DNA of 27,197 nt from an uncultured Alphaproteobacteria bacterium (GTDB taxonomy: Bacteria; Pseudomonadota; Alphaproteobacteria; GCA-2731375). Positions 10,789 through 27,197 of this stretch are shown here, piece by piece; position 1 is the first letter of the stretch, and each line of letters starts with the position of its first letter. The stretch covers positions 1-27,197 of the forward strand of contig CAXGCE010000001.1 in NCBI GenBank assembly GCA_964007795.1, in the 5' to 3' direction. Position numbers and translations under genes: made by a program. The notes under the pieces are model-generated. The model saw nothing but the letters and a program-made list of their open reading frames with translations, did not search any database and was not told the origin of the DNA.

Positions 10789-10833
10789 TACTATGTTTCG
10801 TAATTGATTCGGATTTCTGCAGGAGGCTCCATC

Positions 10834-12321
10834 ATGCGCGTCGTCATGGCCATGATGAAACATGAAACCAACACCTTTTCGCCCGTGCCTACAACCTGGA
10901 CCCGGTTCGAGGAATGGAGCGCCTGTTTTGGAGAGGATGTGATCCGGGCCTATGAGCCCACTAATATGACCTTGTCCGCCTATATCAAATTGTGCCGTGA
11001 AGCCGGGGCCGAAATTATCTCGCCCATCGCGGCCGAGGCCATGCCGTCCGGACCAGTGGATGACGATGCCTACCACTTGATGTCCGATCACATTTTGGAG
11101 GCGGTGGCCAAAGGCTGTGACGCCATTATGCTGGATTTGCATGGCGCCATGGTGACGGAAAGCACCCAGGATGGTGAGGGCACCTTGCTCGAACAAGTAC
11201 GCCGAGCTGCCCCGAATACGCCAATCTGTGTAACCTGCGATCTGCACGCCAACCTCACGCAGACCATGGTGGATAACTGCGATGCTTTGATCGGATACAA
11301 GACCTATCCCCATACGGATATGTACGAGGTGGGCACCAGTGTGGGACAAATTCTGCTGGCCAAATTGCGTGGCAAGGCAAATCCGGTGATGTCGTGGGGG
11401 CGTGTCCCTGTATTAAGTCAAACTCTTCGTCAGGGTACTGTCGATGAACCGTTCAAAACTCTGATCCGCATAACGCGGGAAGTGGAAGCATCTGGCGAGG
11501 TCATGGCCGCGACGGTATTTGGCGGCTTCGCTCTGGCGGATATCCACGACGCTGGTATCTCGTGCATCACCATTGCCGATGGAAACCAGGCGGCAGCGGA
11601 CAATGTGGTAGAGCGCCTACGTTCAGAAATGTGGGAAAAGAGGGAGGAGCATCTTTACAATCACGAGCCGTTGGCCGATGCCGTTGCCCGAGCCAAGGCG
11701 ATCACAGATGGCCCCGTCATTTTGCTGGACCATTCGGATAACACGGGTTCGGGCGGTAATCAGGATGTAATGACAGTGATCGCCGAGGTGATCCGTCAGG
11801 GTTTGCAGGATGTAGCCGTGGGCGGCCTGTGGGATCCTGTCGCCGTGCAGCTGATGATGGAGGCTGGCATCGGCAGTACGGTGACCCTGGAGTTGGGCGG
11901 GAAGACTGACATGCCGTCAATCGATCGCGAAGGAGAGCCTCTGACTGTGACCGGCAAGGTCAAGGCGTTGACCGATGGGGAATGGATCGTGCGAGGGCCC
12001 ATGTATCATGGCCTGGTGGTGCGGATGGGTCACACGGCGGTGCTGGATACAGGCAGTATGCAAATTGTCATAGTCTCCCGTCATCATGAGCCGTGGGATC
12101 AGGGTGTCTTTCATTCGGTGGGGATAGAGCCGGCATACAAACGCTATATCTTGTTGAAATCCCGCATCCATTATCGAGCCGGCTTCGCGCCCATCGCCAA
12201 ACACACCATCACTTTGGATGGTGTCGGTGTCACAACATCGGACAACAGTCTATTGAAATACCGTAACGTGCGTCGTCCTATCTACCCCCTAGACAACATA
12301 AATGAGCCGGGACCGGGTTGA
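10834..12321 (+). CDS. MlrC / peptidase M81 family metallohydrolase
   Basis: HETNTFSP, LDLHGAM, DLHAN, YKTYPHTD, DHSDNTGSGG and LKSRIHYRAGF motifs. ATG 10834 with AGGAGG SD. Substrate unknown; family membership does not imply microcystin degradation. Confidence 0.9.
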   Translation: MRVVMAMMKHETNTFSPVPTTWTRFEEWSACFGEDVIRAYEPTNMTLSAYIKLCREAGAEIISPIAAEAMPSGPVDDDAYHLMSDHILEAVAKGCDAIMLDLHGAMVTESTQDGEGTLLEQVRRAAPNTPICVTCDLHANLTQTMVDNCDALIGYKTYPHTDMYEVGTSVGQILLAKLRGKANPVMSWGRVPVLSQTLRQGTVDEPFKTLIRITREVEASGEVMAATVFGGFALADIHDAGISCITIADGNQAAADNVVERLRSEMWEKREEHLYNHEPLADAVARAKAITDGPVILLDHSDNTGSGGNQDVMTVIAEVIRQGLQDVAVGGLWDPVAVQLMMEAGIGSTVTLELGGKTDMPSIDREGEPLTVTGKVKALTDGEWIVRGPMYHGLVVRMGHTAVLDTGSMQIVIVSRHHEPWDQGVFHSVGIEPAYKRYILLKSRIHYRAGFAPIAKHTITLDGVGVTTSDNSLLKYRNVRRPIYPLDNINEPGPG

Positions 12322-12555
12322 TCCATGATAATCCGGACGCGTCCAATTATTGTATCGTCTGCCGAGCGTAATTGTATCTGATCAGAGGACGCAACATGCG
12401 CATCAATTCTGGCCATTGCCCTAGTAAACGGCCCTGCTTCCAGTAGCATAAGGACACGGTAGTCACCGAAAAAAGCCTAGGCGATCCTCCTTGCGAGCCG
12501 CCCAAGCGTCTTTTAGGCGAATAGTTCCCAAGATCAGCTTTGGAGTAGTCCCAAA

Positions 12556-13617
12556 ATGAGAATTGAAACACTGCTACCATTAGGCAAGCTTGATCCAGGT
12601 CTGCGCGCACCGGAACAGCCGCTGGACATCGATACAGTCAGCGCGGAGGCCCGCCTTGTGGAGCAGCTCGGCTATGACCGTCTGGTAGTAGAGGAGACCA
12701 AGGATGATCCGTTTGTGATCATGGCCCTGGCGGCGGCGTCAACTGAGACCTTAGGTCTGGGAACCTCTGTTGCCATCGCCTTTCCGCGTAGTCCGGCGAT
12801 TATGGCTATGTCCGCCTGGACTTTGCAGAAGCAGTCTAAGGGTCGATTTTGTTTGGGCCTGGGCACCCAGGTGCGTGGCCACATTCGGCGCCGGTACGGT
12901 ATGGAGTGGTCTACGCCGGGACCCTGGATGCGGGACTATATTGGCGCCGTGCGGGCTATCTGGCAGTGCTGGCAGGACCGCACGCCCCTGGAATATCAAA
13001 GCAATCACTACAATCTGAACCTCATGGTTCCCCTGTTTGATCCAGGGCCCATCGCGCATCCGGATATTCCAATTGTCGTTGCTGCTGTAGGGCCGCGGAT
13101 GTGTGAGGTGGGCGGCGAGGTTGCCAATGGCATTCGTCCCCATCCCGTTTGCACGCCAAAGTATATCGACCAGGTTATGTTACCGGCAGTCAAAGCCGGC
13201 TTGGCAAGGGCGGGACGCTCCCTGGACGGTTTTGAAATCGCCATGAAACCATTGGTAGCGACGGCGCCTAACGAGGACATCTTGGCGCAACGGGTGCGAG
13301 ATGCCCGCGCCCGTATCGCCTTCTACTGTTCCACACCGGCCTATCGCCGCGCCTTCGAGATCCATGGTTTGGGCGATTTGGCGACCGAATTGGCGCAATT
13401 GTCAAAGGCTGGGCGTTGGAACGAGATGCCTGAACGTATTAGCGATGATATCCTGCACGAATATGTCGCGGTGGGTACATATGATCAGATCGGAGACATA
13501 CTGGTTGACCGTTTTGACGGCGTCGTCACCAGCATCGAATTTTCCATTGCTGCCAGAGACGAACATGTTCAGGCTACTTTGCAGGATCTGGTACAGAAAA
13601 TCCGACAAACTGGTTAG
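12556..13617 (+). CDS. Luciferase-like (LLM) oxidoreductase, resembling the putative F420-dependent MSMEG_2256-type family
   Basis: ETKDDPF, TSVAIAFPRSP, GRFCLGLGTQVRGHI, AAVGPRM, HPVCTPKY and IAFYCSTPAYR match my recollection of that LLM subfamily. TGGAG SD. Cofactor not provable from sequence. Confidence 0.8.
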   Translation: MRIETLLPLGKLDPGLRAPEQPLDIDTVSAEARLVEQLGYDRLVVEETKDDPFVIMALAAASTETLGLGTSVAIAFPRSPAIMAMSAWTLQKQSKGRFCLGLGTQVRGHIRRRYGMEWSTPGPWMRDYIGAVRAIWQCWQDRTPLEYQSNHYNLNLMVPLFDPGPIAHPDIPIVVAAVGPRMCEVGGEVANGIRPHPVCTPKYIDQVMLPAVKAGLARAGRSLDGFEIAMKPLVATAPNEDILAQRVRDARARIAFYCSTPAYRRAFEIHGLGDLATELAQLSKAGRWNEMPERISDDILHEYVAVGTYDQIGDILVDRFDGVVTSIEFSIAARDEHVQATLQDLVQKIRQTG

Positions 13618-13719: not shown

Positions 13720-14985
13720 TTAATCATCTCCTGCCGCCTGGCGCATTTTCTGTGCATCGAAAGTGGCGGCCTTGACAGCCGCCTTGACCACGGGCACTTC
13801 TTCTCGGGACATCGGTTGCATGTATTCCTTGCGGTTGAGGGCGGCTTCGATATAAGGCGCTAATTCCTTGGCTTTTTTGGCTTCTCTTTCCTCTACATCC
13901 CTGGTGAAGTCGGGCATAACTGTTTCGGCGAACAATTCTAGGGATTCACGAATGTTCTGATTGGTATTGCGGCCGGCCTGTTGCAAGAAGATAACTTGGT
14001 CGATGCCGACATCCTGAAAATCGCGCAAATGCCGTGCCATGTCATCGGGTGTGCCGATGCCGGCCCCGTCGTATTCTGCCCGAGACAAGGCAGCCTGAAT
14101 TAAACGATCGGACGCATCGCCACGTTTCTCTTTGAACTCGTCCCACATGTTTGAATATCCAGGCACGAAATCCTCGGCGACCAGTTTCTGCTGGGAATAG
14201 CGGAAGAACTCAAAATTGTCCTGGCCTCTGCGGATTGCCTCGGTCCTATCCTCGTGCATGGAGAATGCCGAGACCATTGCCAGGTTAGCATTAACCGACC
14301 AGCCGAGAGGCACGCACTCCTCGCTCTTGATGATATCGTAATAGATCTTGGACCAGGCTTTGGCTTCATCGGGATCAAGGAACGAGAAGGCCAGGGCGCC
14401 AATGCCGTTCTGGGCCGCTACTTTGATGGTATCGCGGTTTGTGCAGGCCATCCACAGGGGGGGATGGGGTTTTTGCAATGGTTTAGGCAGCACGTTGCGG
14501 CAGGGAAAGGAAAACCCCATGCCTTCGTAACCCGGATAAGGCGTCAGCACCATCATGTTGCAAATTTGTTCGGCAGCCTCCAGAGCCATGGCGCGCTTTG
14601 TCTTCGCCGGAATGCCAAAGGCGCCCAATTCCAGGCGAGTTGCCCCTTCGCCGATGCCAAATTCAACTCGGCCGTCAGAGAGTAAATCCAGTGTGGCTAA
14701 ACCTTCGGCGGTGCGGGCGGGGTGATTGTAATTCGGGATAACCTGACGAATGCCGTGGCCCAGGCGGATATTCTTGGTTAGTCCAGCCGCCGTGGCCAGG
14801 AAAACCTCCGGCGCCGAGGAATGAGAATACTCATCCAGGAAATGATGCTCCACCTCCCACGCATAATTGAATCCAAGCTGATCCGCGAGAACGATCTGGT
14901 CCAGTGCTTCCTTGAACAGGCGGTATTCGTCGCCCTCGTTCCAGGGGCGGGGTAGCTGCAGTTCATAAAACACACCAAAACGCAT
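13720..14985 (-). CDS. Luciferase-like (LLM) flavin-dependent oxidoreductase
   Basis: MRFGVFYELQLPRP, ADQLGFNYAWEVEHHFLDEYSHSSAPEVFLA, LDLLSDGRVEFGIG, PKPLQKPHPPLWMA. Start at ATG 14985 with GAGGAG SD; the track's 15069 start is over-extended. Confidence 0.9.
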   Translation of the reverse strand: MRFGVFYELQLPRPWNEGDEYRLFKEALDQIVLADQLGFNYAWEVEHHFLDEYSHSSAPEVFLATAAGLTKNIRLGHGIRQVIPNYNHPARTAEGLATLDLLSDGRVEFGIGEGATRLELGAFGIPAKTKRAMALEAAEQICNMMVLTPYPGYEGMGFSFPCRNVLPKPLQKPHPPLWMACTNRDTIKVAAQNGIGALAFSFLDPDEAKAWSKIYYDIIKSEECVPLGWSVNANLAMVSAFSMHEDRTEAIRRGQDNFEFFRYSQQKLVAEDFVPGYSNMWDEFKEKRGDASDRLIQAALSRAEYDGAGIGTPDDMARHLRDFQDVGIDQVIFLQQAGRNTNQNIRESLELFAETVMPDFTRDVEEREAKKAKELAPYIEAALNRKEYMQPMSREEVPVVKAAVKAATFDAQKMRQAAGDD

Positions 14986-15223
14986 GGCGTCGTACTCCTC
15001 CGTCCAATAGTAGAAGTGGCCTCCCGTGATGGCCAGCCCAGTTAAGATGCCCGAAACTATAGATACCACAAGAGATATTGGAAAGTTATGGGCGCAGTTC
15101 GCCCGGTGCTGCCCAGTTTACTGGGAACCAAAAAGATATGCAGTTATTAGCGGGAATTCTGAAGATGCGGCTAAACCAGATACTTCGCCGCTATTGTTGC
15201 TAGTATAAGCGTCATTGCCGGGT

Positions 15224-15952
15224 TTATGGAATTCCTACCATTTCGGTGCCGCTTTCAAATCGGAGAACTTCGCCGACCCAACGTTCCATGCCATCGGGTT
15301 GAATTAGGTCCTTGTACTTGGTCCAGCTAGAAACGTCGGGGAAATACAGTTCCGCCATGCCCGCATAGGGCTCAGCTGCCGGTTCCTGGCTGTGGCCGAC
15401 CACGTACCGAAAACCACCCACCGCTTCCATGGTTTTGCGCACGTTGGGGATATGAACATCCAGCCAGTGATTGAACAGTTCGCTGCTGTTTGAGCCATCT
15501 TTAAGGCAGACTAGAAACGTGACCTTGAAGAAGCCGCTGCGGGTGCAAGGGAAGGGTGGGTTCAGGGTTGGTGGATCGAGTGGAAGGTCCCCCTCCATCA
15601 CCACATATTCATGCGTCGCCCAAGGTATGTAGGGTTCCACTTTTTCTTGAAAAGTATCCTTGGGGGTCTCGCCGTGGGCAACCTTGGGGCGAGGTAACGG
15701 TTCCGGAAACCACAATTGCGCGACGCCGTCCCAAAGATGCGGATTGCCCGGCCGGGGATCAAACAATGTAGCGATATAGCGGGAGGCCTGTGGTCTGCCT
15801 GTTATTGCTTCGGCTGTATTCTGAGCGATTACGTCAGGCATGTGATTGGCGAACCAGTGGGCGATCAATTCTTCCCGCGTGGTGGTTTGACGGCGTTTAA
15901 TTAGGAACTGCATTTTTGCGCTCTTGCTTTTGGCAGGTCTTGATCCTGTCAT
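15224..15952 (-). CDS. EthD-domain protein with two tandem EthD-like repeats
   Basis: Repeat 1: FLIKRR..TREELIAHWFANHMP..WDGVAQLWF. Repeat 2: FLVCLK..ELFNHWLDVHIP..YAGMAELYF. GAGGTG SD. Confidence 0.75.
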   Translation of the reverse strand: MTGSRPAKSKSAKMQFLIKRRQTTTREELIAHWFANHMPDVIAQNTAEAITGRPQASRYIATLFDPRPGNPHLWDGVAQLWFPEPLPRPKVAHGETPKDTFQEKVEPYIPWATHEYVVMEGDLPLDPPTLNPPFPCTRSGFFKVTFLVCLKDGSNSSELFNHWLDVHIPNVRKTMEAVGGFRYVVGHSQEPAAEPYAGMAELYFPDVSSWTKYKDLIQPDGMERWVGEVLRFESGTEMVGIP

Positions 15953-15973
15953 GTCGTCACCTCTTTCTCGTTC

Positions 15974-16876
15974 TCAATAGCCTGAACGCCAAATGTCCTG
16001 GGCGGCTGTCTTGCCGTCGGCGATGGCATGGGCAATCTGACCGCCATGACCCGCGCGCACCGCTCCGGCGGCATACAGACTTGGTTGATCAGTTTTCATA
16101 TGTTCGTCCACCAACAACGCTCCACTTTCGTCACATGCTGCTGAAACAAGGCCAGTACGCGGGGCGAGACCGATAAAAGGGAATACCGCAGCCACCGCGA
16201 GGGTTTCGCTCTCGCCGCTTTCTATGTTCCGCAATTCAATTGCTTCTACGCCTTCGGCTCCCTTGATTTCCACGACCTCCGTTTGCCAACAAAAGTGCAT
16301 ATTATCCCGGTCCGCTGCCTGGCGTACAAAAGCAGGCCTGGCGCGCGGTTTAAGGCCGCGCAGGACCATGGTGACATTGGCGCATAAATTGGCCAAATGC
16401 AGGGCCTCTTGAAATGCGGCATCGCCGCCGCCGATCACGGCGACATCCTGTTCCTTGTACAGGCCGCCATCGCAAAATGCGCATTGTGAGACGCCTCTCC
16501 CGTTTAATTCCGTTTCACCCGGCACAGCCAACGTGCCTAATTCCGCTCCCGTCCCCAGGATGACATGGGCGGCGGTGATCTCACCCAGACGCCAATGATC
16601 TCCCTGCCGCGAGAGATCAGTAATCGCGACTGGGCAATAGTCTACGCCCGCTTCAAGGGCTTCGCCCAACATTGTGTTTATAAGATCCGCTCCAGAGACG
16701 CCGGTGGCGCCAGGGTGGCCGTGAATATCGCCTACGTTGATGATCAATCCGCCCAGTAGTCCTTCATCGATCAGAGCAGTTTTAAGGCCGCAGCGGGCGG
16801 CTTCTGTAGCTGCCGCCAATCCGGTAATCCCAGCCCCAATTACTGCCACTTCATAACTGTTACGTGGAATTGGCAT
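15974..16876 (-). CDS. Thioredoxin reductase-like FAD-dependent disulfide oxidoreductase (divergent TrxB family)
   Basis: VIGAGITG FAD motif, LGTGA, GRGVSQCAFCDG (CxxC at 16472-16483) and VIGGGDAAFQEA. The ATG directly abuts the upstream TAG. Confidence 0.88.
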   Translation of the reverse strand: MPIPRNSYEVAVIGAGITGLAAATEAARCGLKTALIDEGLLGGLIINVGDIHGHPGATGVSGADLINTMLGEALEAGVDYCPVAITDLSRQGDHWRLGEITAAHVILGTGAELGTLAVPGETELNGRGVSQCAFCDGGLYKEQDVAVIGGGDAAFQEALHLANLCANVTMVLRGLKPRARPAFVRQAADRDNMHFCWQTEVVEIKGAEGVEAIELRNIESGESETLAVAAVFPFIGLAPRTGLVSAACDESGALLVDEHMKTDQPSLYAAGAVRAGHGGQIAHAIADGKTAAQDIWRSGY

Positions 16877-18109
16877 CTAGATTCCTAAGGTTTGAATTTT
16901 TTTGGCGATCCGGCAGGGCGGAAAGCCCCAAGTGGGTAGGTAGGCACACTGGGGTATCGGGATGTCGCCGCCCGCGACAATGATGGTGATGTCGTCAGGG
17001 CTCTTTACGGCCGGCACCCGGTCATTGGCGACTCCCGCCTTGACCCAGGCCGGCCATTTGGTCTTTCCTGCCAAACGTGTGGGCAGCCAGGAATTTTCAA
17101 AATCTGCCGCTGTGCATCGGCCATGCTCATGTAAATAGGTTTTCACATCGGCCTTTGAAAGACCTTCGTCAGCTAAGACCTTGGCTATATGAGGCGCCAA
17201 GATCACCGTTACTTGCCCTCCATGCAGACGGGAAAAGGCGGAGGTGGCGGATGCCATGACCGTGGCGATATCGTCTAACCCGCCAGTAACGTTAATGACG
17301 CTTTCCGCCCGCTGTACGACCAGGACGCTATCATCGACAGTAAAGCCTAGTTCTTCGCGCAAACTCTCCCAGGGATTAAAGGCGTCATCCTCGGCTAGAC
17401 ACAGGCTATAGCGGCCCGGTTGTCCCAAGCCCGCGAAGGCGACCGCTGCTGGCCAACCACCGCCCAAATTATGCATGATCAACCGCACGGCCCGGCCGAT
17501 GGCTCCATTGGCTCGCCATCCCGGCCCAAGCGCACCAAATCGGCTGTTCATATGCAAGGTTTTGGCTAAGGGCCCCGACAGCATCAACAGCGGGGTGACA
17601 TTTTCATCGGTCGTTTGGACCCCGCGCAAATTGAAGGCTGGGTCTAACAGGGCTTCCGTTGCTACCATAACCACCGGCATGTGGATATCCTCACACCCCG
17701 CCATGACCGCATTGATGGCAACTTTTTCGATGGTTACTACGCCCTTCAACGGCTCTGCCTCACCGAGCACTTTGTTACGGGGCTGACCGCCGGCACGCAG
17801 CATCCCATCCACCCGGTTCGTCGTCGGGGGCACGATCGGTAGACCGTCGGTCCAGCCCCGCCGGTAGAACATCTCGTTCACCACCCCATCAGCATTTGGC
17901 CCACGTACCACTTCAATCCGTTGCCGGGGAAATGCTCCGACCTGGTTTAGACGGTCCAGGAGGCCTTGCTCTTCTGCCCGTGTCCGCAGGGTGTCATCAA
18001 TCCACTCGCCGGTGGATCGTTGGCCCGTTGGCAGCAACACCCACAAGGTCTCACCTTCACTCACACCGAGCGGCTCATCCGGCGTTGGCCAATTTATTCT
18101 GCCAGTCAT
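16877..18109 (-). CDS. Protein of unknown function, paralog of the large C-terminal domain of the upstream UGSC selenoprotein
   Basis: Shares GW(T/S)DGLPIVPP, AGC..MP, GP, GAL..G..AN..IGR and LAE motifs with 18075..19805. Start uncertain: ATG 18109, or GTG 18064 which has an SD-like GGATGAG; 18175 is unlikely. Confidence 0.85.
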   Translation of the reverse strand: MTGRINWPTPDEPLGVSEGETLWVLLPTGQRSTGEWIDDTLRTRAEEQGLLDRLNQVGAFPRQRIEVVRGPNADGVVNEMFYRRGWTDGLPIVPPTTNRVDGMLRAGGQPRNKVLGEAEPLKGVVTIEKVAINAVMAGCEDIHMPVVMVATEALLDPAFNLRGVQTTDENVTPLLMLSGPLAKTLHMNSRFGALGPGWRANGAIGRAVRLIMHNLGGGWPAAVAFAGLGQPGRYSLCLAEDDAFNPWESLREELGFTVDDSVLVVQRAESVINVTGGLDDIATVMASATSAFSRLHGGQVTVILAPHIAKVLADEGLSKADVKTYLHEHGRCTAADFENSWLPTRLAGKTKWPAWVKAGVANDRVPAVKSPDDITIIVAGGDIPIPQCAYLPTWGFPPCRIAKKIQTLGI

Positions 18110-19805
18110 TTGGCAGGCGGATTGCCCGCGCCGTTGGGAAACCGAGGATTCCGTTGTGAGAGAATACTTGGGCATTGGTACGGCCTGGATCGCCGCTCAC
18201 AGCAATCTGGATATCTTTAGAGTTACAGACGAGCGGTACCAGGCGATCGGGATCCTGGGATTCTCCATACAGTTCATTGGCTTTGCCCAATCGAGCCAGT
18301 TCGAACACGGAGCGTCCACCGGAATATAAATTAGTGAACTCGGTAATATACTGCTCGAACTTCCAGGCCGGAATGCGGGCATTTTGGAACAGCCATTGAC
18401 GCACATCGTCTTTTGACCAGCCAGCCTTAGCTATGGTTTCAGCCAATATTGGTGAGATTACTAGCAGGGGATTGTAGCTGCCATCAGCCATGCCTACGGT
18501 GAAGATCAACTGCCAGCCAGTCTGGCTGATCAGGGCATCTGCCAGATAGGGAAGCATTTCCTCCGGCGTCCGACCGAAAACCGAGGCAATGACATCCCCG
18601 CCCGTGAAACGCGAGATAGTGACCACATTGTCGCCCCGGCCATGGCCGAAGTCGGCCGCATGCGGCGGCCAGCCGATCCTGGCCAATGTGTCCTCGTTCT
18701 CAGCCAAAACGACCCGCCAGGTATTGCCGAATGTGCCCTTATCGGTCTGATGCAGGATAAAACCGGCAACATTGCGTAGGTACAACCGCCACCAACGGCC
18801 GATGGAGGTATTTGCCTGGAAGCCGTCGCGTAGCGCACCCTGTTCGTAGTTGAACTCCAGATCCTTGATGATGGGGCCATTAATGGTAATCAATGTTTCC
18901 GCGCCTGGCGTATTTCCAGAATGTTCTACGCCGTAACCTGGATCGGCCATAGCTTCAGCTAAACTAACCAATACGGGCATATACTGGGGTCGACAGCCCG
19001 CCAAAACACCGTTGACGGCCACATTCCAGATGGTGGCTTGACGGTTATCGGGGGGCAGTTGGCCGATGACGTGATCCGCAGGCAAGTCCGTGAACTCGAG
19101 AAAATTTTCCACTTTTTCCCGTGAAGGGGGCACAATGGGCAGGCCGTCTGACCACCCATTTTCATAGAAGAACCGATTGATTTCCTCAAATGTACCCTCC
19201 ATGACCATGTCCTGGGGTCCAGGTTCCGGGATCATCACAGCCGCTGGTGGGGCGGATGTAAGGTTATCGATCACATCTTTCAAAGTGACGGAAGTCAGAT
19301 TGTCCCGAAGTTCGTTGTCGGTTTGTGTATCCACGTGTCCCGGCACTTTGGCCATGGGCAGATTTGGAAGGCCTAGGCCGACGGCGGTGGTGGCCCCTTG
19401 GCCTAGGAAACCTTCACAGACGAGTGAGGAGGATGGAACTCCAGCGGCTTCGACGGCGGCTGATGCCCGCAACACGGCGGGGGTACAGCTGCCTCAACAG
19501 CCCATGCCGGATATAATGGCGTCAACCTTGTGTTCCGCCAGAGTATCCGGCAAATCGGCGATAATCTGGCCTTCTTCATGCCCGTGGGTGGAACCGAAGG
19601 TGCTATAGCCGACAAATTTCATGTCCGGATAGGCCGCTGATAATTCGGCTTGTAGAATAGGAAAAATTTCATCGCCCCGGAACAGATAGTCCCAAAGGAA
19701 GGCCACGGTCTTTCCTTCTAGGGTTTTCAGTCTTGGTGCCAAGGGCGCGATCTCAACAGTTTTTTCGCCGCGCGGCCAAAGCGCACCATACGTTTGCTCG
19801 CTCAT
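18075..19805 (-). CDS. Predicted selenoprotein, UGSC type, with in-frame TGA (19494-19496) read as Sec104; ~576 aa fusion with a large domain of unknown function
   Basis: Minus strand reads ATG GGC TGT TGA GGC AGC TGT ACC CCC = M-G-C-U-G-S-C-T-P, and both flanking ORFs are in one frame. A SECIS-like hairpin follows the TGA. ATG 19805 has a GGAGA SD, and there is no obvious SD before the track's GTG 19475. Confidence 0.85.
19455..19493 (-). promoter_or_regulatory. Candidate bacterial SECIS element
   Basis: Directly 3' of UGA: GGC A GCUG UACC CCCGC CGUGUU GCGGG CAU CAGC C GCC. Stems of 3+4+5 bp; the G/U-containing apical loop begins 17 nt after UGA. Folded by eye. Confidence 0.7.
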
Positions 19806-20060
19806 GCTCGTCTCCAAAATCTTTGAATTGTGGAAAGTTTAACGCATTTGTCGACTTGCGCCATAGAGCCAAATCCGATCGCCTAACTGCAGGAAGAATT
19901 TTTATCGCAGCTACGGTCAACCGATCGTAATCGCTTATCCCATCCATAGCCCTGTGCAGGACGGGTCAGTCCCCATAGCACCAGCAAATCCAGCTTCAAT
20001 TTGTGCAGGTCCTGCCACAGGTAAATAAATTCGCGGAGAATCTGACGGGCAATTTTTTGA

Positions 20061-21689
20061 TTAACTCGAAACGGCTCCGGTATCCGTTACGGCCAGATCA
20101 AAGGCCGCTGCCATGAGGGCCTTGGTGTAATCCGTCTGGGGCGACGTGAAAATCTGCTCCGCCTTCCCTTGCTCCATAACTTTGCCGTTGCGCAAAACAA
20201 TAACTTCGTCGGCCAGGGCACGTACGACTTTTAGATCATGAGAAATGAATAAATAGGCCAGGCGGTGACGTTGCTGCAAATCGCGCAATAGATTTACGAT
20301 TTGCGCCTGTACTGAAACGTCCAGGGCCGAGGTGGGTTCGTCAAGTACGACAAATCTCGGTTGCAATACCATGGCCCGGGCGATGGCGACGCGCTGGCGC
20401 TGGCCGCCGGAGAATTCATGGGGAAAACGGTCCATGGCCGAAGGGTCAAGTCCCACCTCCTTCAGAATGCGGGCGATCAAGGCGCGTCGTTCCTGATTAT
20501 CTCCACCTTCGCCATGAATAAGAAGCCCTTCCTCGATTATTTGCGCGATGGACATGCGCGGGCTGAGTGAAGAGAAAGGATCCTGGAAGACGATCTGCAT
20601 TTGCCGTCGCAGGGGCCTCAACGCCTTGCTGCTAAAAGTATCGATTCCCGTCCCTTGGAATTGGACCGCTCCTTCGCTGGATATCAAACGTAATAGGGCC
20701 AGGCCCAATGTGGTTTTGCCGGAACCGCTTTCGCCCACTACGCCGACTGTGTGCCCTTCGCGCACCTCCAACGAAACCTCGTCTACGGCGCGAATGTGAT
20801 CCACCGTGCGCCGGAATATTCCGCTCTTGATAGGGAACCAGACACGCAAATTTTTTGCCGTCAGCACGGTCTTGGCCTCATCGGGGCGCCCAGCCGGTTT
20901 TCTATCAGGTTCGGATCTCAGCAAATGCATCGTGTAGGGGTGTTGCGGATGGTGAAATAGATCGTCCGTGACTGCTTGTTCCACGATCTCGCCACCGGTC
21001 ATGACAACCACCCTATCAGCCATACGGCGGACGATGCCCAGGTTATGGGTGATCAAAATCATGCCCATGCCCAGTTTGGTCTGGAGTTCCTTTAGCAGGT
21101 CCAGGATTTGTGCCTGAATGGTGACGTCCAGGGCTGTGGTGGGCTCGTCCGCAATCAGTATGTCCGGTTCGTTGGCGAGGGCCATAGCAATCATGACGCG
21201 TTGCCGTTGCCCGCCTGATAGTTGATGCGGGTAGGATTTCAGGCGCTTTTCCGGTTCTTGAATGCCCACCAGATGAAGCAGCTCCAGTACGCGGCTTCGC
21301 GCTTGACCAGCAGTCATTTTCTTGTGCAAGGACAGTACTTCGCCAATCTGGGTTTCCACCACGTGCAGAGGGTTCAGGGCAGTCATGGGTTCCTGAAAAA
21401 TCATGGAAATATTGTTGCCGCGTGCATGGCGCATGGTTGCCTCGTTGGCGCCAATTAACTCCATACCCCGATACTCAATCGACCCGGACGGATGACTGGC
21501 CGTCGGGTAGGGCAATAATTGTAGGACGGACAAAGCGGTGACGGATTTGCCGGAACCGCTTTCTCCAACAATGGCCAGAGTTTCACCCGGACTTAGATCG
21601 AAGGAAACATTCTTGACCGCATGCGCTTGGTTGCCTTCGATGTGGAAATCCACGGACAGATCTCGAACTTTCAGAATTGGCTCGCTCAT
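20061..21689 (-). CDS. yejF: Peptide ABC transporter ATP-binding protein with two fused ATPase domains, YejF type
   Basis: Two GESGSGK Walker A motifs, two LSGGQRQR / FSGGQRQR signatures, DEPTTALD and [12 protein letters not shown] overlap with yejE. Confidence 0.92.
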
Positions 21690-22771
21690 GCGGTTTGTTC
21701 TGCTGCGACGGCTCCCGCCGCCGCACTCTTGCGTGGGTCAAAGGCGTCGCGAACTGCCTCGAAGATAAAGATTAGCAGCGTCAACATGGTCGACAGCATG
21801 ATAAAGGCGGTAATGCCTAACCAGGGCGCCTGTAAATTAGCCTTGCCCTGTTGCAGCATTTCGCCCAGGGAGGGCGAGCCGGGTGGCAGGCCAAAGCCCA
21901 GGAAGTCCAACGCCGTCAAGGTGGTGATGGAGCCGGATAGGATAAACGGCAGAAAGGTCAGTGATGCGACCGTGGCGTTGGGCAAGACGTGACGGTACAT
22001 GATCATGGCGTCCGACAGGCCGAGGGCACGGGCGGCACGGACATAGTCGAAATTCCGGGCACGCAGAAATTCTGCCCGCACCACGCCCACTAGGCTCATC
22101 CAGGAAAACACTAGCATTATGCCCAAAAGCCACCAGAAATTCGGTTCTACGAAGCTGGCCAGGATTATCAGCAAGTACAGGGTGGGTAGGCCTGACCAGA
22201 CCTCGATAAAGCGCTGAAACAACAGGTCGGTCCAGCCGCCGAAATAGCCCTGCACTGCCCCGGCCATGACCCCGATTATGGACGAAAATATGGTCAAGAT
22301 CAGGCCGAATAGCACGGATATACGAAAGCCATAAATTAGGCGTGCTACCACGTCCCGTCCCTGATCGTCCGTGCCTAGCCAATTGTTGGCCGATGGCGGC
22401 GCTGGCGCCGGGACTGGCAGGTCATAATTGATAGTTCTGTAACTGTATCGGATCAGCGGCCAAAGGGTCCAGCCATCGGCCTTGGCTATCAGCTCCATAA
22501 CAAAGGGGTCGCGATAATCCGCTTCGGTCTCGAACTCGCCACCGAAAGTTGTTTCGGGGTAGGCAACAAACACGGGTGTGTACATCTCGCCTTTGAAACC
22601 GATCAGCAATGGTTTGTCGTTGGCAATCAATTCCGCAAACAGGGCCAGGACCAACAGAAACAGGAAGATCCAAAGGGACCAATAGCCCCTTTTATTAGCC
22701 TGAAAATTCCGCAAACGGCGGCGGGTAAGGGGCGTAATGGGCCGGCCCAGAAATTTATCCCCCGCCACCAC
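21686..22771 (-). CDS. yejE: Peptide ABC transporter permease, YejE type
   Basis: ELIANDKPL, NWLGTDDQGRDVVARLIYGFRISVLFGL, VRAEFLRARNFDYVRAARALG, LDFLGFGLPPGSPSLGE. Confidence 0.93.
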   Translation of the reverse strand: MVAGDKFLGRPITPLTRRRLRNFQANKRGYWSLWIFLFLLVLALFAELIANDKPLLIGFKGEMYTPVFVAYPETTFGGEFETEADYRDPFVMELIAKADGWTLWPLIRYSYRTINYDLPVPAPAPPSANNWLGTDDQGRDVVARLIYGFRISVLFGLILTIFSSIIGVMAGAVQGYFGGWTDLLFQRFIEVWSGLPTLYLLIILASFVEPNFWWLLGIMLVFSWMSLVGVVRAEFLRARNFDYVRAARALGLSDAMIMYRHVLPNATVASLTFLPFILSGSITTLTALDFLGFGLPPGSPSLGEMLQQGKANLQAPWLGITAFIMLSTMLTLLIFIFEAVRDAFDPRKSAAAGAVAAEQTA

Positions 22772-23887
22772 CTATACCTCGCGGCTTTCAAAGTCGATGC
22801 GGGGATCGATGATCATGTACATCAAATCACCAATCAGGTTCAGAATTAGCCCCATAAGTGTGAAAACGTACAAGGTCCCAAGGACCACAGGATAATCCCG
22901 GTTCAGCGCTGCCTCGAATCCCAGCAAACCCAGGCCATCGAGCGAGAAAATCACCTCGATCAACAACGATCCGGTGAACAACACGCCGATAAAAGCTGAG
23001 GGAAAGCCTGCCACCACGATCAACATGGCGTTGCGGAAGACATGGCCGTACAGAACGCGACGTTCGCTCAAGCCCTTAGCCCGGGCAGTGACCACGTAGT
23101 GTTTGTTAATTTCGTCAAGAAAGGAATTCTTGGTCAGCATGGTCAAGGTGGCAAAACCGCCGATGGCCATGGCAGTAATGGGTAGCACCATATGCCAGAA
23201 ATAGTCGGCAATCTTGGCTGGCCAGCTCATATCGTCCCAGCCTTCCGAGGTGAGGCCGCGCAGGGGGAAGATATCCCAGAACGAACCTCCTGCGAACAGA
23301 ACAATCAGCAGGACGGCGAAAAGGAAGCCCGGTATGGCGTAGCCGACGATGATTGCGGTGGAGGACCAGATATCAAACCGGGTGCCGTCCCGAACCGCCT
23401 TGGCAATGCCCAAGGGGATGCAGATCAAATATGTAAGCAGGGTGGTCCAGATACCCAGTGAAATTGAGACGGGCATTTTTTCGATGACTAGGCTAATCAC
23501 TGCACGATCCCGAAAGAAGCTCTCGCCAAAATCAAATTGTAGGTAGTTCCAAATCAATAGGAAGAACCGTTCATGGGCAGGCTTGTCCAAACCGAATTGC
23601 TGTTCTAGATCCTTAATCAGCTCAGGATCCAGCCCCTGTGCACCGCGATATTTGGACGTTACGGCCGCGGCCGCGCCTTGAGTGGCGGCCTGCTGTTCTC
23701 GGCTAATTTCTGCCCCACCACTACCCGCGACGCGGCTAGTTGCTTCCACCGCCGTCCCAGTGAGTTGGGCGATCACCTGCTCCACCGGTCCGCCAGGTAG
23801 AAATTGCAAGACGATGAAATTCAACAACATGATGCCGAACAACGTTGGGATCATCAGCAGCAGGCGGCGGATGATATAGGCAATCAT
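22772..23887 (-). CDS. yejB: Peptide ABC transporter permease, YejB type
   Basis: [66 protein letters not shown]. Confidence 0.93.
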
Positions 23888-23890
23888 GGA

Positions 23891-25750
23891 TTATTCCCGG
23901 CCTAGGTCGGCGGCTTTTGCCGGGTTCCACCACCAAGTATCCAGGACGCCGCGGGCATATTTGGGCTTGATGGCCGGGCGGCCAAATAGATCCCAATAGG
24001 CGATGGTGTGTGATGCCTTGAACCATTGTGGTACCAGATTGTGGGTCCACATAATAACCCGGTCCAGGGCATGCGTGGCATGGCGCAATTCATCACGGCT
24101 TTTTGCGGCAATGATTTTTTCGATCAGATCGTCTACCGCCGGGCTTTTCAGGCCGGTGTAATTGCGTCCACCCTGCATGTCGGCTGTCTTGGAGCCCCAT
24201 GCGTTGCGTAGGGCCAGGCCCGGCGTCAGAGAGGATGAATTGCGGAAGGTAGTGATATCGAAATCAAAATTTTGGACGCGGCGTTGATATTGCGCTGGTT
24301 CCACGAGGCGGAAACGGGCTGTGATGCCCAATTTCTCAAGATTGCGCACATAAGGCATCACAATTCGCTCGAATAGCTTGCTGTACGATAGAAATTCAAT
24401 CTCGAACGGTTGGCCCTTTCTGTTTACCAGCTTGCCGTTCTTGATAGTCCAGCCCGCGGCTGTCAGTAAATTCCTGGCCATGCGTAGCTCTCGTCGGATA
24501 TTGCCAGAGCCGTTAGTTTTCGGGGCCCGGAACACGGGGCCATATACTTCCGCTGGCAAGTCCTTACGCCAAGGCTGTAGCAAGGCTAATTCCGGGCCTT
24601 GCGGCGTGCCGGTGGCTTCCATGTCGGAATTCTGAAAGATGCTGTAAGTGCGTTTGTACAAACCATAAAACAGGTTCTTGTTGGTCCATTCAAAATCAAA
24701 TACTAGGCCGATCGCCCGGCGTACCCGCCGGTCGGCAAATTTGGCTTTGCGAGTATTGATGAAAAAGGCCTGGAATCCGGAAGGATTATCATCGGGCATA
24801 ACTTCCTTGATCAACCGACCGTCTTTCACCGCCGGCACATTGTCGTATTTGGTTGCCCAGTTGCGGGAAGTAAAATCTTCCCGGAAATCCAGCTTGCCGG
24901 CAAACAAAGCCTGTAATCCGATATCCCGATCGCGGTAATAATCCCAGGTGATGCGGCGAAAATTGTAGCGTCCGCGATAGACCGCCAGACCCTTACCCCA
25001 ATGATTATCAGCAAGAACATAGGTGATGGAACGGCCCGGATCCACCTTGTCCACTCTGTAGGGGCCACTACCCAGGGGTGGGGTCATGGTGGTTTTCGTG
25101 AAATCGTGCTGCAGGTACCATGCCTTGGAGATAATAGGCATGCTAGCGGCCGTGGCTGGCAGGTCACGGGTCAGGACACCCTTGGCGAAATTGAAACGGA
25201 TTTTGCGATGGGTCAGCACCTTGGTCCCGGTGATATCCTTGAACAGAACGCGAAAAGCCGGATGACCCTGTTCCTTTAGTGTCTTGAATGAAAAGGCAAT
25301 ATCCTCTGCCGTTATCTCGCTGCCATCATGCCAGCGCGCCCGCGGCCGAATAGTAAAGGTGATCGACTGCCGGTTATCGGGAATTACAACACCACTGGCG
25401 ATAAGACCATAAAAGGAATCCTCTTCATCGCCGGATGCGGTCATCAGTGTCTCGAATGTCAGTAACCGGCCGTCCACCCCAAACGGGTTGCTGCCCGCGG
25501 CCCACCGCCCTTTGAGAATAAAAGGATTTAAACTATCGAAATTTCCATTGTACCAAAGACGCAAGTGCCCGCCTTTCGGAGCGTTGGGGTTGACATAGTC
25601 GAAATGCGAGAATTCAGGGCCATAATTCAGTTTGCCAAGGATGGAGAAGCCATGTTGTGGTTTGGAGGCGGCTTGTCCAAACCAGCCTAGAAAAAATAAC
25701 AAAAATAACGCGAGACGAATCATGGGCGGATGATAGCAGATCGATATCAC
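23891..25750 (-). CDS. yejA: Family-5 extracellular solute-binding protein, YejA type (copy adjacent to the permeases)
   Basis: HGFSILGKLNYGPEFSHFDYVNPNAPKGG, FDSLNPFILKG, ARWHDG, PPLGSGPY, FDFEWTNKNLFYG. Start is either GTG 25750 (GTGA overlap with the upstream stop) or ATG 25723, which precedes a signal peptide. Confidence 0.9.
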   Translation of the reverse strand: MISICYHPPMIRLALFLLFFLGWFGQAASKPQHGFSILGKLNYGPEFSHFDYVNPNAPKGGHLRLWYNGNFDSLNPFILKGRWAAGSNPFGVDGRLLTFETLMTASGDEEDSFYGLIASGVVIPDNRQSITFTIRPRARWHDGSEITAEDIAFSFKTLKEQGHPAFRVLFKDITGTKVLTHRKIRFNFAKGVLTRDLPATAASMPIISKAWYLQHDFTKTTMTPPLGSGPYRVDKVDPGRSITYVLADNHWGKGLAVYRGRYNFRRITWDYYRDRDIGLQALFAGKLDFREDFTSRNWATKYDNVPAVKDGRLIKEVMPDDNPSGFQAFFINTRKAKFADRRVRRAIGLVFDFEWTNKNLFYGLYKRTYSIFQNSDMEATGTPQGPELALLQPWRKDLPAEVYGPVFRAPKTNGSGNIRRELRMARNLLTAAGWTIKNGKLVNRKGQPFEIEFLSYSKLFERIVMPYVRNLEKLGITARFRLVEPAQYQRRVQNFDFDITTFRNSSSLTPGLALRNAWGSKTADMQGGRNYTGLKSPAVDDLIEKIIAAKSRDELRHATHALDRVIMWTHNLVPQWFKASHTIAYWDLFGRPAIKPKYARGVLDTWWWNPAKAADLGRE

Positions 25751-27197
25751 TTCCGCCCCTTCAGGGCCGCTTGAAGGGTCTCGTCCTTTGCTTCGTCGAC
25801 CCACCAAGTATCGGAGAATCCAAGCCCGTATTTAGGTTTGATAGCCGGACGTGAAAACCGGTTCCAATAGGCGATCCGGTAACTGTTGATGTGCCAATTG
25901 GGGATGACGAAATGGTTCCATAACAGCACGCGATCCAAGGCGCGAGAGGCAGCAACCAATTCCCCGCGGTTGCTGGCAAAAATAATATGGTCGATTAGTT
26001 TGTCAATTGCTGGGTCCTTAATGCCGATGTAGTTTCGGCTGCCGGGTCGGTCAGCGGCTGCGGATCCCCAAAAATCCCGCTGTTCATTTCCTGGTGAAAG
26101 GGATTGTCCCCAACTGCCCACGATGACATCGAAATCGAAATTCCGAATTCGGTTAATGTATTGCGAGGTGTCCACAACACGAACTTCGACCTTGATGCCC
26201 AGCCGTTCCATGGCCCGTTGGATGGGCGCAACAATTCGCGCGAAACCCTGGTTAACTAGTAGGAATTCCAGCGCCATGACTTCGCTGGTCTCGCTGTTGG
26301 TCAATTTACTGTCTTTCACAAACCAGCCCGCCGTTTCCAATAACCGCTTAGCTTGGCGCAGTTGGCGCCGCGATCTACCTGATCCATCTGTTTCGGGCAG
26401 CTTAAATTCCTTTGTGAACACTTCGGCAGGAATTTGGCCTCTCAATGGCTCCAGAAACTTCAATTCCGCCCCGGTGGGTATTTTGGTCGCTGCCAGTTCG
26501 GAATTCGAAAAATAACTTCGGGTTCGTGTGTATTGGCCAAAAAACAGGTTTTTGTTTGCCCATTCAAAATCAAATGTCAGGGCAAGGGCTTCACGAACTC
26601 GACGATTCTGAAACTTTGACTTGCGAACGTTGAAGGCGAAGGATTGCATGCCGGTGGGATTATTGTTCGCTAGGGTTTCCCTGATGACTTTACCTTTCGC
26701 AATGGCTGGAAAATTGTATTGGGTGGCCCAGATCTTGGCAGTATTTTCTTGGCGAAAATCGAAGGCGTTGGCCTTGAAGGCCTCAAGAGCCACGGTGGGG
26801 TCCCGATAATATTCAAAACGGATTGCGTCAAAGTTGTATCGGCCCTTGTTGACGCCAAGATTCCTGCCCCAGTAATCTGCTACCCGTTCGAAGGTGATGC
26901 TACGACCGGGATCGACCTTGCCAATTTTGTAGGGACCGCTGCCTAGGGGCGGCTCCAACGTAGTACGCTCAAAATCACGGCCTTGCCAGTGGTGTTTGGG
27001 TAATATCGGCAGCTGTCCGATAATCAGGGGCAGCTCGCGATTCTTCCGGCCCTTGAAAATAAATTTGACTTTGTGGGGGGATAAAACTTCGGCCTTTTCC
27101 ACGTTGGCGTAGTAAAATCGGTAAAACGGCGCGCCCTTGGATTTCAGGATATCTAGGCTGAAGGCGACATCGTCCGCCGTAACAGGCTTGCCGTCGT
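25747..27197 (-). CDS. yejA: Second YejA-type solute-binding protein, 5'-truncated by the window edge
   Basis: The frame stays open past the track's 27102 start to the window end (DGKPVTADDVAFSLDILKSKGAPFYRFYYANV). Contains EPPLGSGPY, FDFEWANKNLFFGQY, QSLSPGNEQRDFWGS and ALDRVLLW. Confidence 0.9.
   Translation of the reverse strand, partial: DGKPVTADDVAFSLDILKSKGAPFYRFYYANVEKAEVLSPHKVKFIFKGRKNRELPLIIGQLPILPKHHWQGRDFERTTLEPPLGSGPYKIGKVDPGRSITFERVADYWGRNLGVNKGRYNFDAIRFEYYRDPTVALEAFKANAFDFRQENTAKIWATQYNFPAIAKGKVIRETLANNNPTGMQSFAFNVRKSKFQNRRVREALALTFDFEWANKNLFFGQYTRTRSYFSNSELAATKIPTGAELKFLEPLRGQIPAEVFTKEFKLPETDGSGRSRRQLRQAKRLLETAGWFVKDSKLTNSETSEVMALEFLLVNQGFARIVAPIQRAMERLGIKVEVRVVDTSQYINRIRNFDFDVIVGSWGQSLSPGNEQRDFWGSAAADRPGSRNYIGIKDPAIDKLIDHIIFASNRGELVAASRALDRVLLWNHFVIPNWHINSYRIAYWNRFSRPAIKPKYGLGFSDTWWVDEAKDETLQAALKGRK

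Follow-up and report, generated by a model that had tools for sequence, protein, structure and literature searches.

A UGSC selenoprotein, its paralogue and a thioredoxin reductase-like flavoprotein as a candidate selenocysteine relay reductase in a marine alphaproteobacterium

What is encoded by a gene with an in-frame TGA that stands at the head of a row of closely packed genes, one of which looks like a thioredoxin reductase? This question is raised by a stretch of 27,197 nucleotides from an uncultured alphaproteobacterium (assembly GCA_964007795.1, contig CAXGCE010000001.1, positions 1 to 27,197), which as a whole is called the window in the following; all coordinates are positions in it. 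The genes of interest are all located on the minus strand, where an ABC importer is followed, after a gap of 255 nt, by the TGA-interrupted gene, a paralogue, a gene for a TrxB-like flavoprotein, a gene for a tandem-EthD protein and a gene for a luciferase-like monooxygenase or oxidoreductase (LLM). An initial annotation, made from the sequence, proposed that the five genes from the interrupted gene to the LLM gene specify one uncharacterised selenocysteine (Sec)-dependent reductase system, with a Sec module resembling the selenoprotein B of glycine and D-proline reductase (GrdB and PrdB). Every observation on the sequence in that annotation held when it was followed up; of the interpretation the Sec module, the paralogue and the link to the TrxB-like gene have been kept and the five-gene system has been given up. 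What we found is a conserved cassette of three genes: a fusion of a UGSC domain to an orphan partner domain (A), a paralogue of the latter (B) and a dedicated flavoprotein of the thioredoxin reductase (TrxR) type. We are inclined to believe that it acts as a Sec relay reductase.

The selenoprotein and its family

The selenoprotein gene (18075..19805, minus strand) encodes 576 amino acids, with the UGSC domain at residues 9-183 and partner domain A at about residues 195-576. When 18075-19817 on the minus strand is translated with TGA as U it reads ...VDAIISGMGC-U-GSCTPAVLRASAAVEAAGVPSSSLV..., the immediate context being VDAIISGMGC-U-GSCTPAV. From the likely start, ATG 19805, the Sec is residue 104 and the motif C-U-G-S-C occupies residues 103-107. 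The codon (19494..19496, minus strand) was compared in the 80 best related loci, taken from species-representative genomes, and is TGA in 80/80 of them. A hairpin resembling a selenocysteine insertion sequence (SECIS) is found at 19450..19497 on the same strand, with the core stem CCCGC/GCGGG and the loop CGUGUU at 19466-19481. The stem is built by codons +5, +6, +7 and +9 (P, A, V and R, written CCC, GCC, GTG and CGG), and these four show zero synonymous variation in 80/80 loci, against a variation of 0.6-2.2 bits in other degenerate codons nearby; the loop is CGUG[U/C]U across the loci. The hairpin folds with -27.2 kcal/mol, and because its z relative to shuffled sequences is only -1.1 the case for a SECIS rests on the comparative data. 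An Rfam scan of the window gave no SECIS or riboswitch match.

If the TGA were a true stop codon the locus would consist of a 107-aa peptide and a separate 466-aa protein, and hundreds of records are annotated in this way by automatic gene callers. Such programs stop at the TGA, which is why most of the more than 3,400 relatives of the selenoprotein are mis-called at 466-468 aa. We consider a true stop practically ruled out: full-length homologues at 54-58% identity have Cys at the Sec position and read straight through it without a break, the TGA falls inside a single Pfam domain, the codon and the frozen hairpin are kept together in 80/80 loci, and the same in-frame TGA is present in all seven UGSC genes of the genome, in which selA and selB are encoded side by side. 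No tRNA-Sec scored above threshold in this genome, which is a metagenome-assembled genome (MAG) of 2.78 Mb that is 78% complete. The TGA is, on the comparative evidence, decoded as Sec, and the selenoprotein claimed in the initial annotation stands.

It should be mentioned that two further cysteines, Cys103 just before the Sec (19494-19499) and Cys131 (19413-19415), are shared by all 80 loci of the Sec form. Most homologues of the Cys form have Ala instead of Cys103 and Ser or Ala instead of Cys131, and the two extra cysteines appear to be linked to Sec.

The UGSC domain (19257..19781, minus strand) scores 99.7 bits against PF24696 (cut-off 25), a profile of 172 positions, and has what defines the UGSC family, a U/C-G-S-C motif with an in-frame TGA and a SECIS downstream. 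The narrower NCBIfam equivalog NF041046 gives 48-52 bits, below its cut-off of 125 because the fused clade is divergent. UGSC-containing proteins were described as early as 2008; according to the passages on them in that paper (Zhang and Gladyshev, 2008; PMC2398784) few selenoproteins are more numerous in the Global Ocean Sampling (GOS) data, where UGSC is fifth by count among the selenoprotein families, with 255 Sec forms against 21 Cys forms. The same passages list a ‘UGSC/Unknown_1’ fusion, call the function of most domains fused to UGSC unclear and guess at a thioredoxin-like fold for UGSC itself. In the part of a 2026 review that deals with it (PMC13188914) UGSC is still placed among the uncharacterised selenoproteins. 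Since the family has been catalogued and the fusion published, the protein in the window is not undescribed: by its sequence it is a UGSC protein of the fused ‘UGSC/Unknown_1’ form, agreeing with the published family in its U-G-S-C motif, in the large excess of Sec over Cys forms and in its fusion to a conserved unknown domain. The word uncharacterised in the initial annotation is right for the biochemistry, of which the literature searched holds none, and wrong for the selenoprotein family. In the UGSC passages of the papers retrieved by full-text searches there is no account of a cassette with a paralogue and a TrxR-like gene.

The full selenoprotein was modeled with AlphaFold2 (AF2) at a predicted local distance difference score (pLDDT) of 90.3 and a predicted template modeling score (pTM) of 0.91, the latter suggesting that the UGSC and partner domains dock rigidly. 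In the model the UGSC domain has a beta-alpha fold of five strands, and Sec104 is placed where strand 3 ends and helix 3 begins. The matches of this domain model in a Foldseek search of the PDB were flavodoxin- or Rossmann-like (the B12-binding domain of MetH, RpiB, CheY receivers and type I periplasmic binding proteins), and no thioredoxin-fold entry was among the top 50; the ESM Atlas gave no usable match for the domain. UGSC models as a flavodoxin-like domain and not as a thioredoxin fold, in which it differs from the guess of 2008.

Three genes that recur together

The paralogue (16877..18106, minus strand), which consists of partner domain B, has 409 aa if it starts at ATG 18106 and 395 aa if it starts at GTG 18064. 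It is 31% identical to residues 213-542 of the selenoprotein over 338 aa (E 8e-35), which bears out the paralogy. The first start places it in a 32-nt overlap with the selenoprotein gene, the stop of which is at 18075-18077, and the second leaves a gap of 10 nt. Its own stop (16877-16879) abuts the start of the TrxB-like gene at 16876 with 0 nt between them, and from the stop of the latter at 15974 to the start of the EthD gene at 15952 there is a gap of 21 nt. The LLM gene follows after 238 nt if it starts at ATG 14985, which has GGAGGAG 8 nt upstream; a longer alternative would start at GTG 15069. All spacings given in the initial annotation (overlap or near-abutment at 18075, then 0, 21 and 238 nt) are reproduced from the coordinates, the last on the assumption that ATG 14985 is used.

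The TrxB-like gene (15974..16876, minus strand) encodes a flavoprotein resembling the thioredoxin reductases of low relative molecular mass (low-Mr), with a Pyr_redox_2 match and a CAFC redox disulfide. It matches TIGR01292 from end to end with 234 bits, below the equivalog cut-off of 343, and a canonical trxB with 402 bits is found on another contig (C450). The sequence CAFCDG is at residues 132-137, and the redox-active CxxC is retained in 51/51 cassette homologues. With TrxB (TIGR01292) and the dedicated reductases of the AhpF type it shares the full-length family match, the CxxCD[GA] motif and the FAD and NAD(P)H motifs; it differs from TrxB in being a second copy beside the canonical gene and in being tied to the UGSC cassette instead of to a thioredoxin gene. 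The score below cut-off, the kept CxxC and the separate canonical trxB together argue for a dedicated disulfide reductase. The name TrxB in the initial annotation was accordingly right about the likeness and about the link to the cassette, which is seen across many lineages, and does not apply in the sense of the housekeeping enzyme.

Which of the genes belong together was judged in the 80 related loci, taken with flanks of at most 10 kb in both directions; for each gene only loci with enough downstream sequence were counted. The paralogue follows the fusion on the same strand at 56/70 loci and the TrxB-like gene at 48/68, so the co-occurrence that the initial annotation had assumed is real for these genes. 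In Alphaproteobacteria, Burkholderiales, Reyranella and Rhodospirillales the cassette is kept with fusion proteins as little as 63% identical. P0043, a native homologue of the Cys form, is likewise encoded next to a TrxR-like gene. In other clades different reductant modules are found, for example fusions with ferredoxin:thioredoxin reductase (FTR). When all open reading frames (ORFs) of 81 loci were clustered de novo, in search of hints at a substrate, no family outside the cassette exceeded 12 loci, and recurrence was limited to the three genes of the cassette.

The EthD and LLM genes behave differently. That all five genes are one functional system is a natural thought, as they share a strand and are tightly spaced as far as EthD, and as EthD is also found in three close relatives. 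Four marine RNA libraries, from three studies, yielded short low-depth contigs that between them match the five genes at 95-100% identity, and one contig (16752-16954) bridges the junction of the paralogue and the flavoprotein gene. The survey largely refutes the five-gene system, which we regard as very improbable. EthD follows the fusion on the same strand at 3/63 loci, all of them the close relatives just mentioned, and this LLM at 0/51, so they are local neighbours only. The 238-nt gap before the LLM gene contains a promoter-like site (15084-15056), which suggests that LLM probably has its own promoter. The conserved core is three genes, not five, and the system does not extend to EthD, LLM and the ABC importer, which are local neighbours.

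The genome has seven partner-domain copies beside its seven UGSC genes. The UGSC genes are on contigs C8, C23, C231, C4, C1, C237 and C440, and five of the seven adjoin or are fused to a partner gene; these five are all that have enough assembled surroundings, the remaining two being located on a 2-kb contig (C237) and, as a weak match, at a contig end (C440). A second fusion, of the paralogue-like subtype, is on C23. Among the related loci there is also a subclade (L052, L053, L056, L057, L059 and L060) which has the fusion with neither paralogue nor flavoprotein; as far as N-terminal sequences tell, its neighbours are a divergent TauD-like gene, hydantoinase A/B-like genes and a CoA-transferase-like gene.

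Likeness of the Sec module to selenoprotein B

The same genome encodes a PrdB-like selenoprotein of 290 aa (L093:1456-2328, contig C47) with the sequence ...DIAILTPV-U-PVC-HQTVSLVARHLEENGIPTV, read as ILTPV-U-PVC-HQT. It scores 110.9 bits against TIGR04483 (cut-off 300), and most of its more than 2,800 relatives are mis-called at the TGA. A PDB sequence search with this protein found no solved GrdB or PrdB.

Its Sec motif has the same pattern as the UGSC motif of the window. An hhalign comparison of an alignment of the UGSC domain with an alignment of this PrdB-like family gave a probability of 59% when both alignments were small. With larger alignments the probability was 77% (E 1.9e-5, score 41.1), with Sec placed on Sec and the E..G[IV]P[ST] strands aligned too; the control alignments, one reversed and twenty column-shuffled, scored at most 17.7. 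In NCBIfam the only families matched by the UGSC domain of the window were GrdH, PrdB and GrdB (E 0.03-0.06, 12-13 bits against cut-offs of 300-775), and the standalone UGSC protein of the genome matched GrdF (9.5e-6), GrdB (4.3e-5) and TIGR01918 (1.5e-4). Apart from a weak NapF match of the standalone copy (E 0.019), the selenoprotein B models are the only matches of the UGSC domains other than to themselves, and in the other direction the PrdB-like protein gives a weak match to UGSC. Sec104 and the Sec of the PrdB-like protein both fall at about position 149-152 of the PrdB model TIGR04483.

The Pfam model GRDB (PF07355) gave no match to the UGSC domain even at E 10. This negative is uninformative because the model, as judged from the PrdB-like protein, ends 2-3 residues short of the Sec; it was probably built on truncated gene calls and is blind to similarity around the Sec.

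The resemblance to GrdB and PrdB claimed in the initial annotation is borne out by these comparisons, whose signal is consistent and weak to moderate in strength; quite likely, the Sec module of UGSC is distantly related to the C-terminal part of selenoprotein B, in which the Sec of that protein is found. Selenoprotein B (GrdB, GrdF, GrdH and PrdB; TIGR01917, TIGR01918, TIGR04483, NF040794 and NF040795) and UGSC share U-x-x-C at the turn from strand to helix, followed by E..G[IV]P[ST], as expected of a homologous Sec-bearing U-x-x-C module. The similarity is reproducible but remote and local, being confined to about 60-100 residues around the Sec, and with 12-25 bits against family cut-offs of 65-800 the sequence places UGSC outside the selenoprotein B family. 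The surroundings differ as well. No pyruvoyl proprotein (PrdA/GrdE), GrdA or GrdC/D was seen among the genes here, the large partner domain is unrelated in sequence, and the host is a marine alphaproteobacterial MAG of aerobic type. Selenoprotein B systems depend on a disulfide-reducing electron donor, as the TrxR-linked UGSC would.

The partner domain and what the cassette may do

The initial annotation let the large domains take the place of GrdE, PrdA and GrdCD. By sequence they resemble neither these nor any other family: searches of Pfam, NCBIfam and the sequences of the PDB with the partner domain gave no match, and in the ESM Atlas it matches only unnamed clusters. It is nevertheless a very large family, with 4,524 clusters at 50% identity in an exhaustive profile search of a representative library. 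The domain occurs alone (about 350 aa), with UGSC, in tandem A-B pairs (about 710-740 aa) and together with the FTR catalytic chain. In two proteins, P0293 and P0343, it is fused at its C-terminal side to the FTR catalytic beta chain (PF02943), and P0293 has an N-terminal UGSC domain in addition. Invariant or nearly so in the family are DGLP..PT, NAVMAGC, N200, R205 and E239 (paralogue numbering), and the Cys of NAVMAGC is found in 60/60 paralogues.

AF2 modeled the paralogue with a pLDDT of 91.5. Foldseek gave E below 0.05 for this model only with class I fumarate hydratases (E 6.9e-4, probability 0.84) and hydrolases of the barbiturase type; CyuA and PurM-like matches were also seen, and the TM score was at most 0.25 overall. 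A model in which the partner domains are non-redox enzymes, hydro-lyases or amidohydrolases distantly resembling the fumarate hydratase or Toblerone folds, with UGSC and the flavoprotein as a redox switch or repair device for an oxidation-sensitive site, would start from these matches. The superpositions behind them have TM 0.16-0.25 and a root mean square deviation of 12-17 Å, and neither the comparison with the Fumerase profile nor the cysteines agree with a fumarate hydratase, so we consider such a device improbable. The identity as a class I fumarate hydratase was itself tried and rejected: the best TM was 0.24, hhalign against a Fumerase (PF05681) alignment built from 12 genomes gave a probability of 0.06%, and the three cysteines that bind the Fe-S cluster in the class I enzymes are not conserved, the partner family keeping only one or two Cys.

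The relay that we propose for the three-gene cassette would work as follows. Electrons from NAD(P)H would pass to the FAD of the flavoprotein and on to its CAFC dithiol, as is known for the low-Mr TrxR family. In the flavodoxin-like UGSC domain Sec104 and Cys107 would form a selenenylsulfide, which the dithiol would re-reduce. By analogy with the selenoprotein B of D-proline and glycine reductase, the selenolate would attack a substrate held by the pair of orphan domains, A and B, near the invariant ...AGC cysteine; the bond would be cleaved or reduced and the Se-S form regenerated. The function of the cassette is, as read from its sequences, most likely that of an NAD(P)H-driven, selenium-dependent reductase. 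That the partner domain is independently linked to disulfide-reducing modules, the FTR catalytic chain and UGSC, speaks in favor of this.

The roles could also be distributed the other way around. The partner domains would then be the catalysts, acting through the invariant ...AGC Cys, and UGSC would be a built-in redox carrier which substitutes for thioredoxin, its Sec never meeting the substrate. There is precedent for a carrier of this kind, since thioredoxin does not touch the substrate in the methionine sulfoxide and arsenate reductase systems. The near invariance of the NAVMAGC Cys is in keeping with it, many family members have Cys in place of Sec, and the carrier gives the impression of being exchangeable, as there are partner domains that stand by themselves or are fused to another disulfide-reducing module such as FeThRed_B. 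On the other side, the Sec module is akin to that of GrdB and PrdB, whose Sec is regarded as acting on the substrate, and the excess of Sec over Cys forms in the GOS data argues for a chemically demanding step at the Sec. We find a mere carrier role unlikely, although of the alternatives weighed here it is the one to be taken most seriously. The stronger form of the proposal, in which a GrdB/PrdB-type Sec module acts on a substrate bound by an orphan-fold heterodimer and the cassette represents an uncharacterised class of NAD(P)H-driven selenoenzyme, is possible, with a chance that we would put a little below even.

Several points weigh against a Sec relay reductase. The missing biochemistry, mentioned above, is one of them. 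The RNA-library contigs are weak evidence of expression because their depth is low and carry-over of DNA is possible. That a TrxR-like gene lies close by is characteristic of this clade of orthologues: the flavoprotein gene is missing at the Rickettsiales-like, Myxococcota, Acidimicrobiia and Methylomirabilota loci of the sample. The UGSC domain has no thioredoxin fold in the model, so its direct reduction by an enzyme of the TrxR type is not a given, and the cassette includes no thioredoxin gene. The chemistry of the partner domain is a guess because the domain has no recognisable relative. Finally, no pyruvoyl subunit (PF09338) was found in the window or in the 78%-complete genome, a weak search, as the control genomes also gave none; the analogy with GrdB and PrdB may stop at the Sec module.

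With the UGSC family and its fusion already known, what is new is the cassette and its link to GrdB and PrdB. An orphan of about 20 years, UGSC, gains a complete parts list that can be tested, in which the redox module with its Sec is joined by two subunits that may be catalytic and by an electron donor of their own. The module is now tied to GrdB and PrdB, the only well-studied Sec-dependent reductases that cleave bonds, and if the proposal is true aerobic marine bacteria would use one of the most abundant aquatic selenoproteins to cleave a bond by a new reductive reaction. As the partner family is very large and has no relative in Pfam, NCBIfam or the PDB, any activity assigned to it would give thousands of genes an annotation. 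At least one organism in culture, Rhodospirillaceae bacterium SYSU D60007 (locus L072), carries the cassette, which puts genetic and biochemical work within reach.

The neighbouring genes remain to be described. The tandem-EthD protein (15224..15952, minus strand) matches PF07110 with 42.7 bits on its C-terminal half; it is an internal duplication, the halves being 30% identical (E 3e-9), of which Pfam sees only the second. The LLM protein (13720..14985, minus strand) matches PF00296 with 135.8 bits. Upstream of the cassette, at 20061..27102 on the minus strand, Pfam and NCBIfam recognize an ABC importer of the peptide/nickel/opine type with two family-5 binding proteins, two permeases and a fused ATPase; it is present only in relatives with at least about 80% identity. 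The genes for its two solute-binding proteins lie in tandem ahead of the permeases (23891-27102, minus strand), and ORF 1 seems to run about 60 nt into ORF 2, so the start of the second gene is probably later than listed. On the plus strand at 10804-13617, converging on the strand of the cassette, a gene for an MlrC-like M81 peptidase, nearby only in close relatives, is followed by one for an F420-dependent LLM oxidoreductase of TIGR03617. The peptidase has 221.8 bits on microcystinase MlrC, far under the cut-off, and the TIGR03617 gene has 373 bits, above the cut-off.

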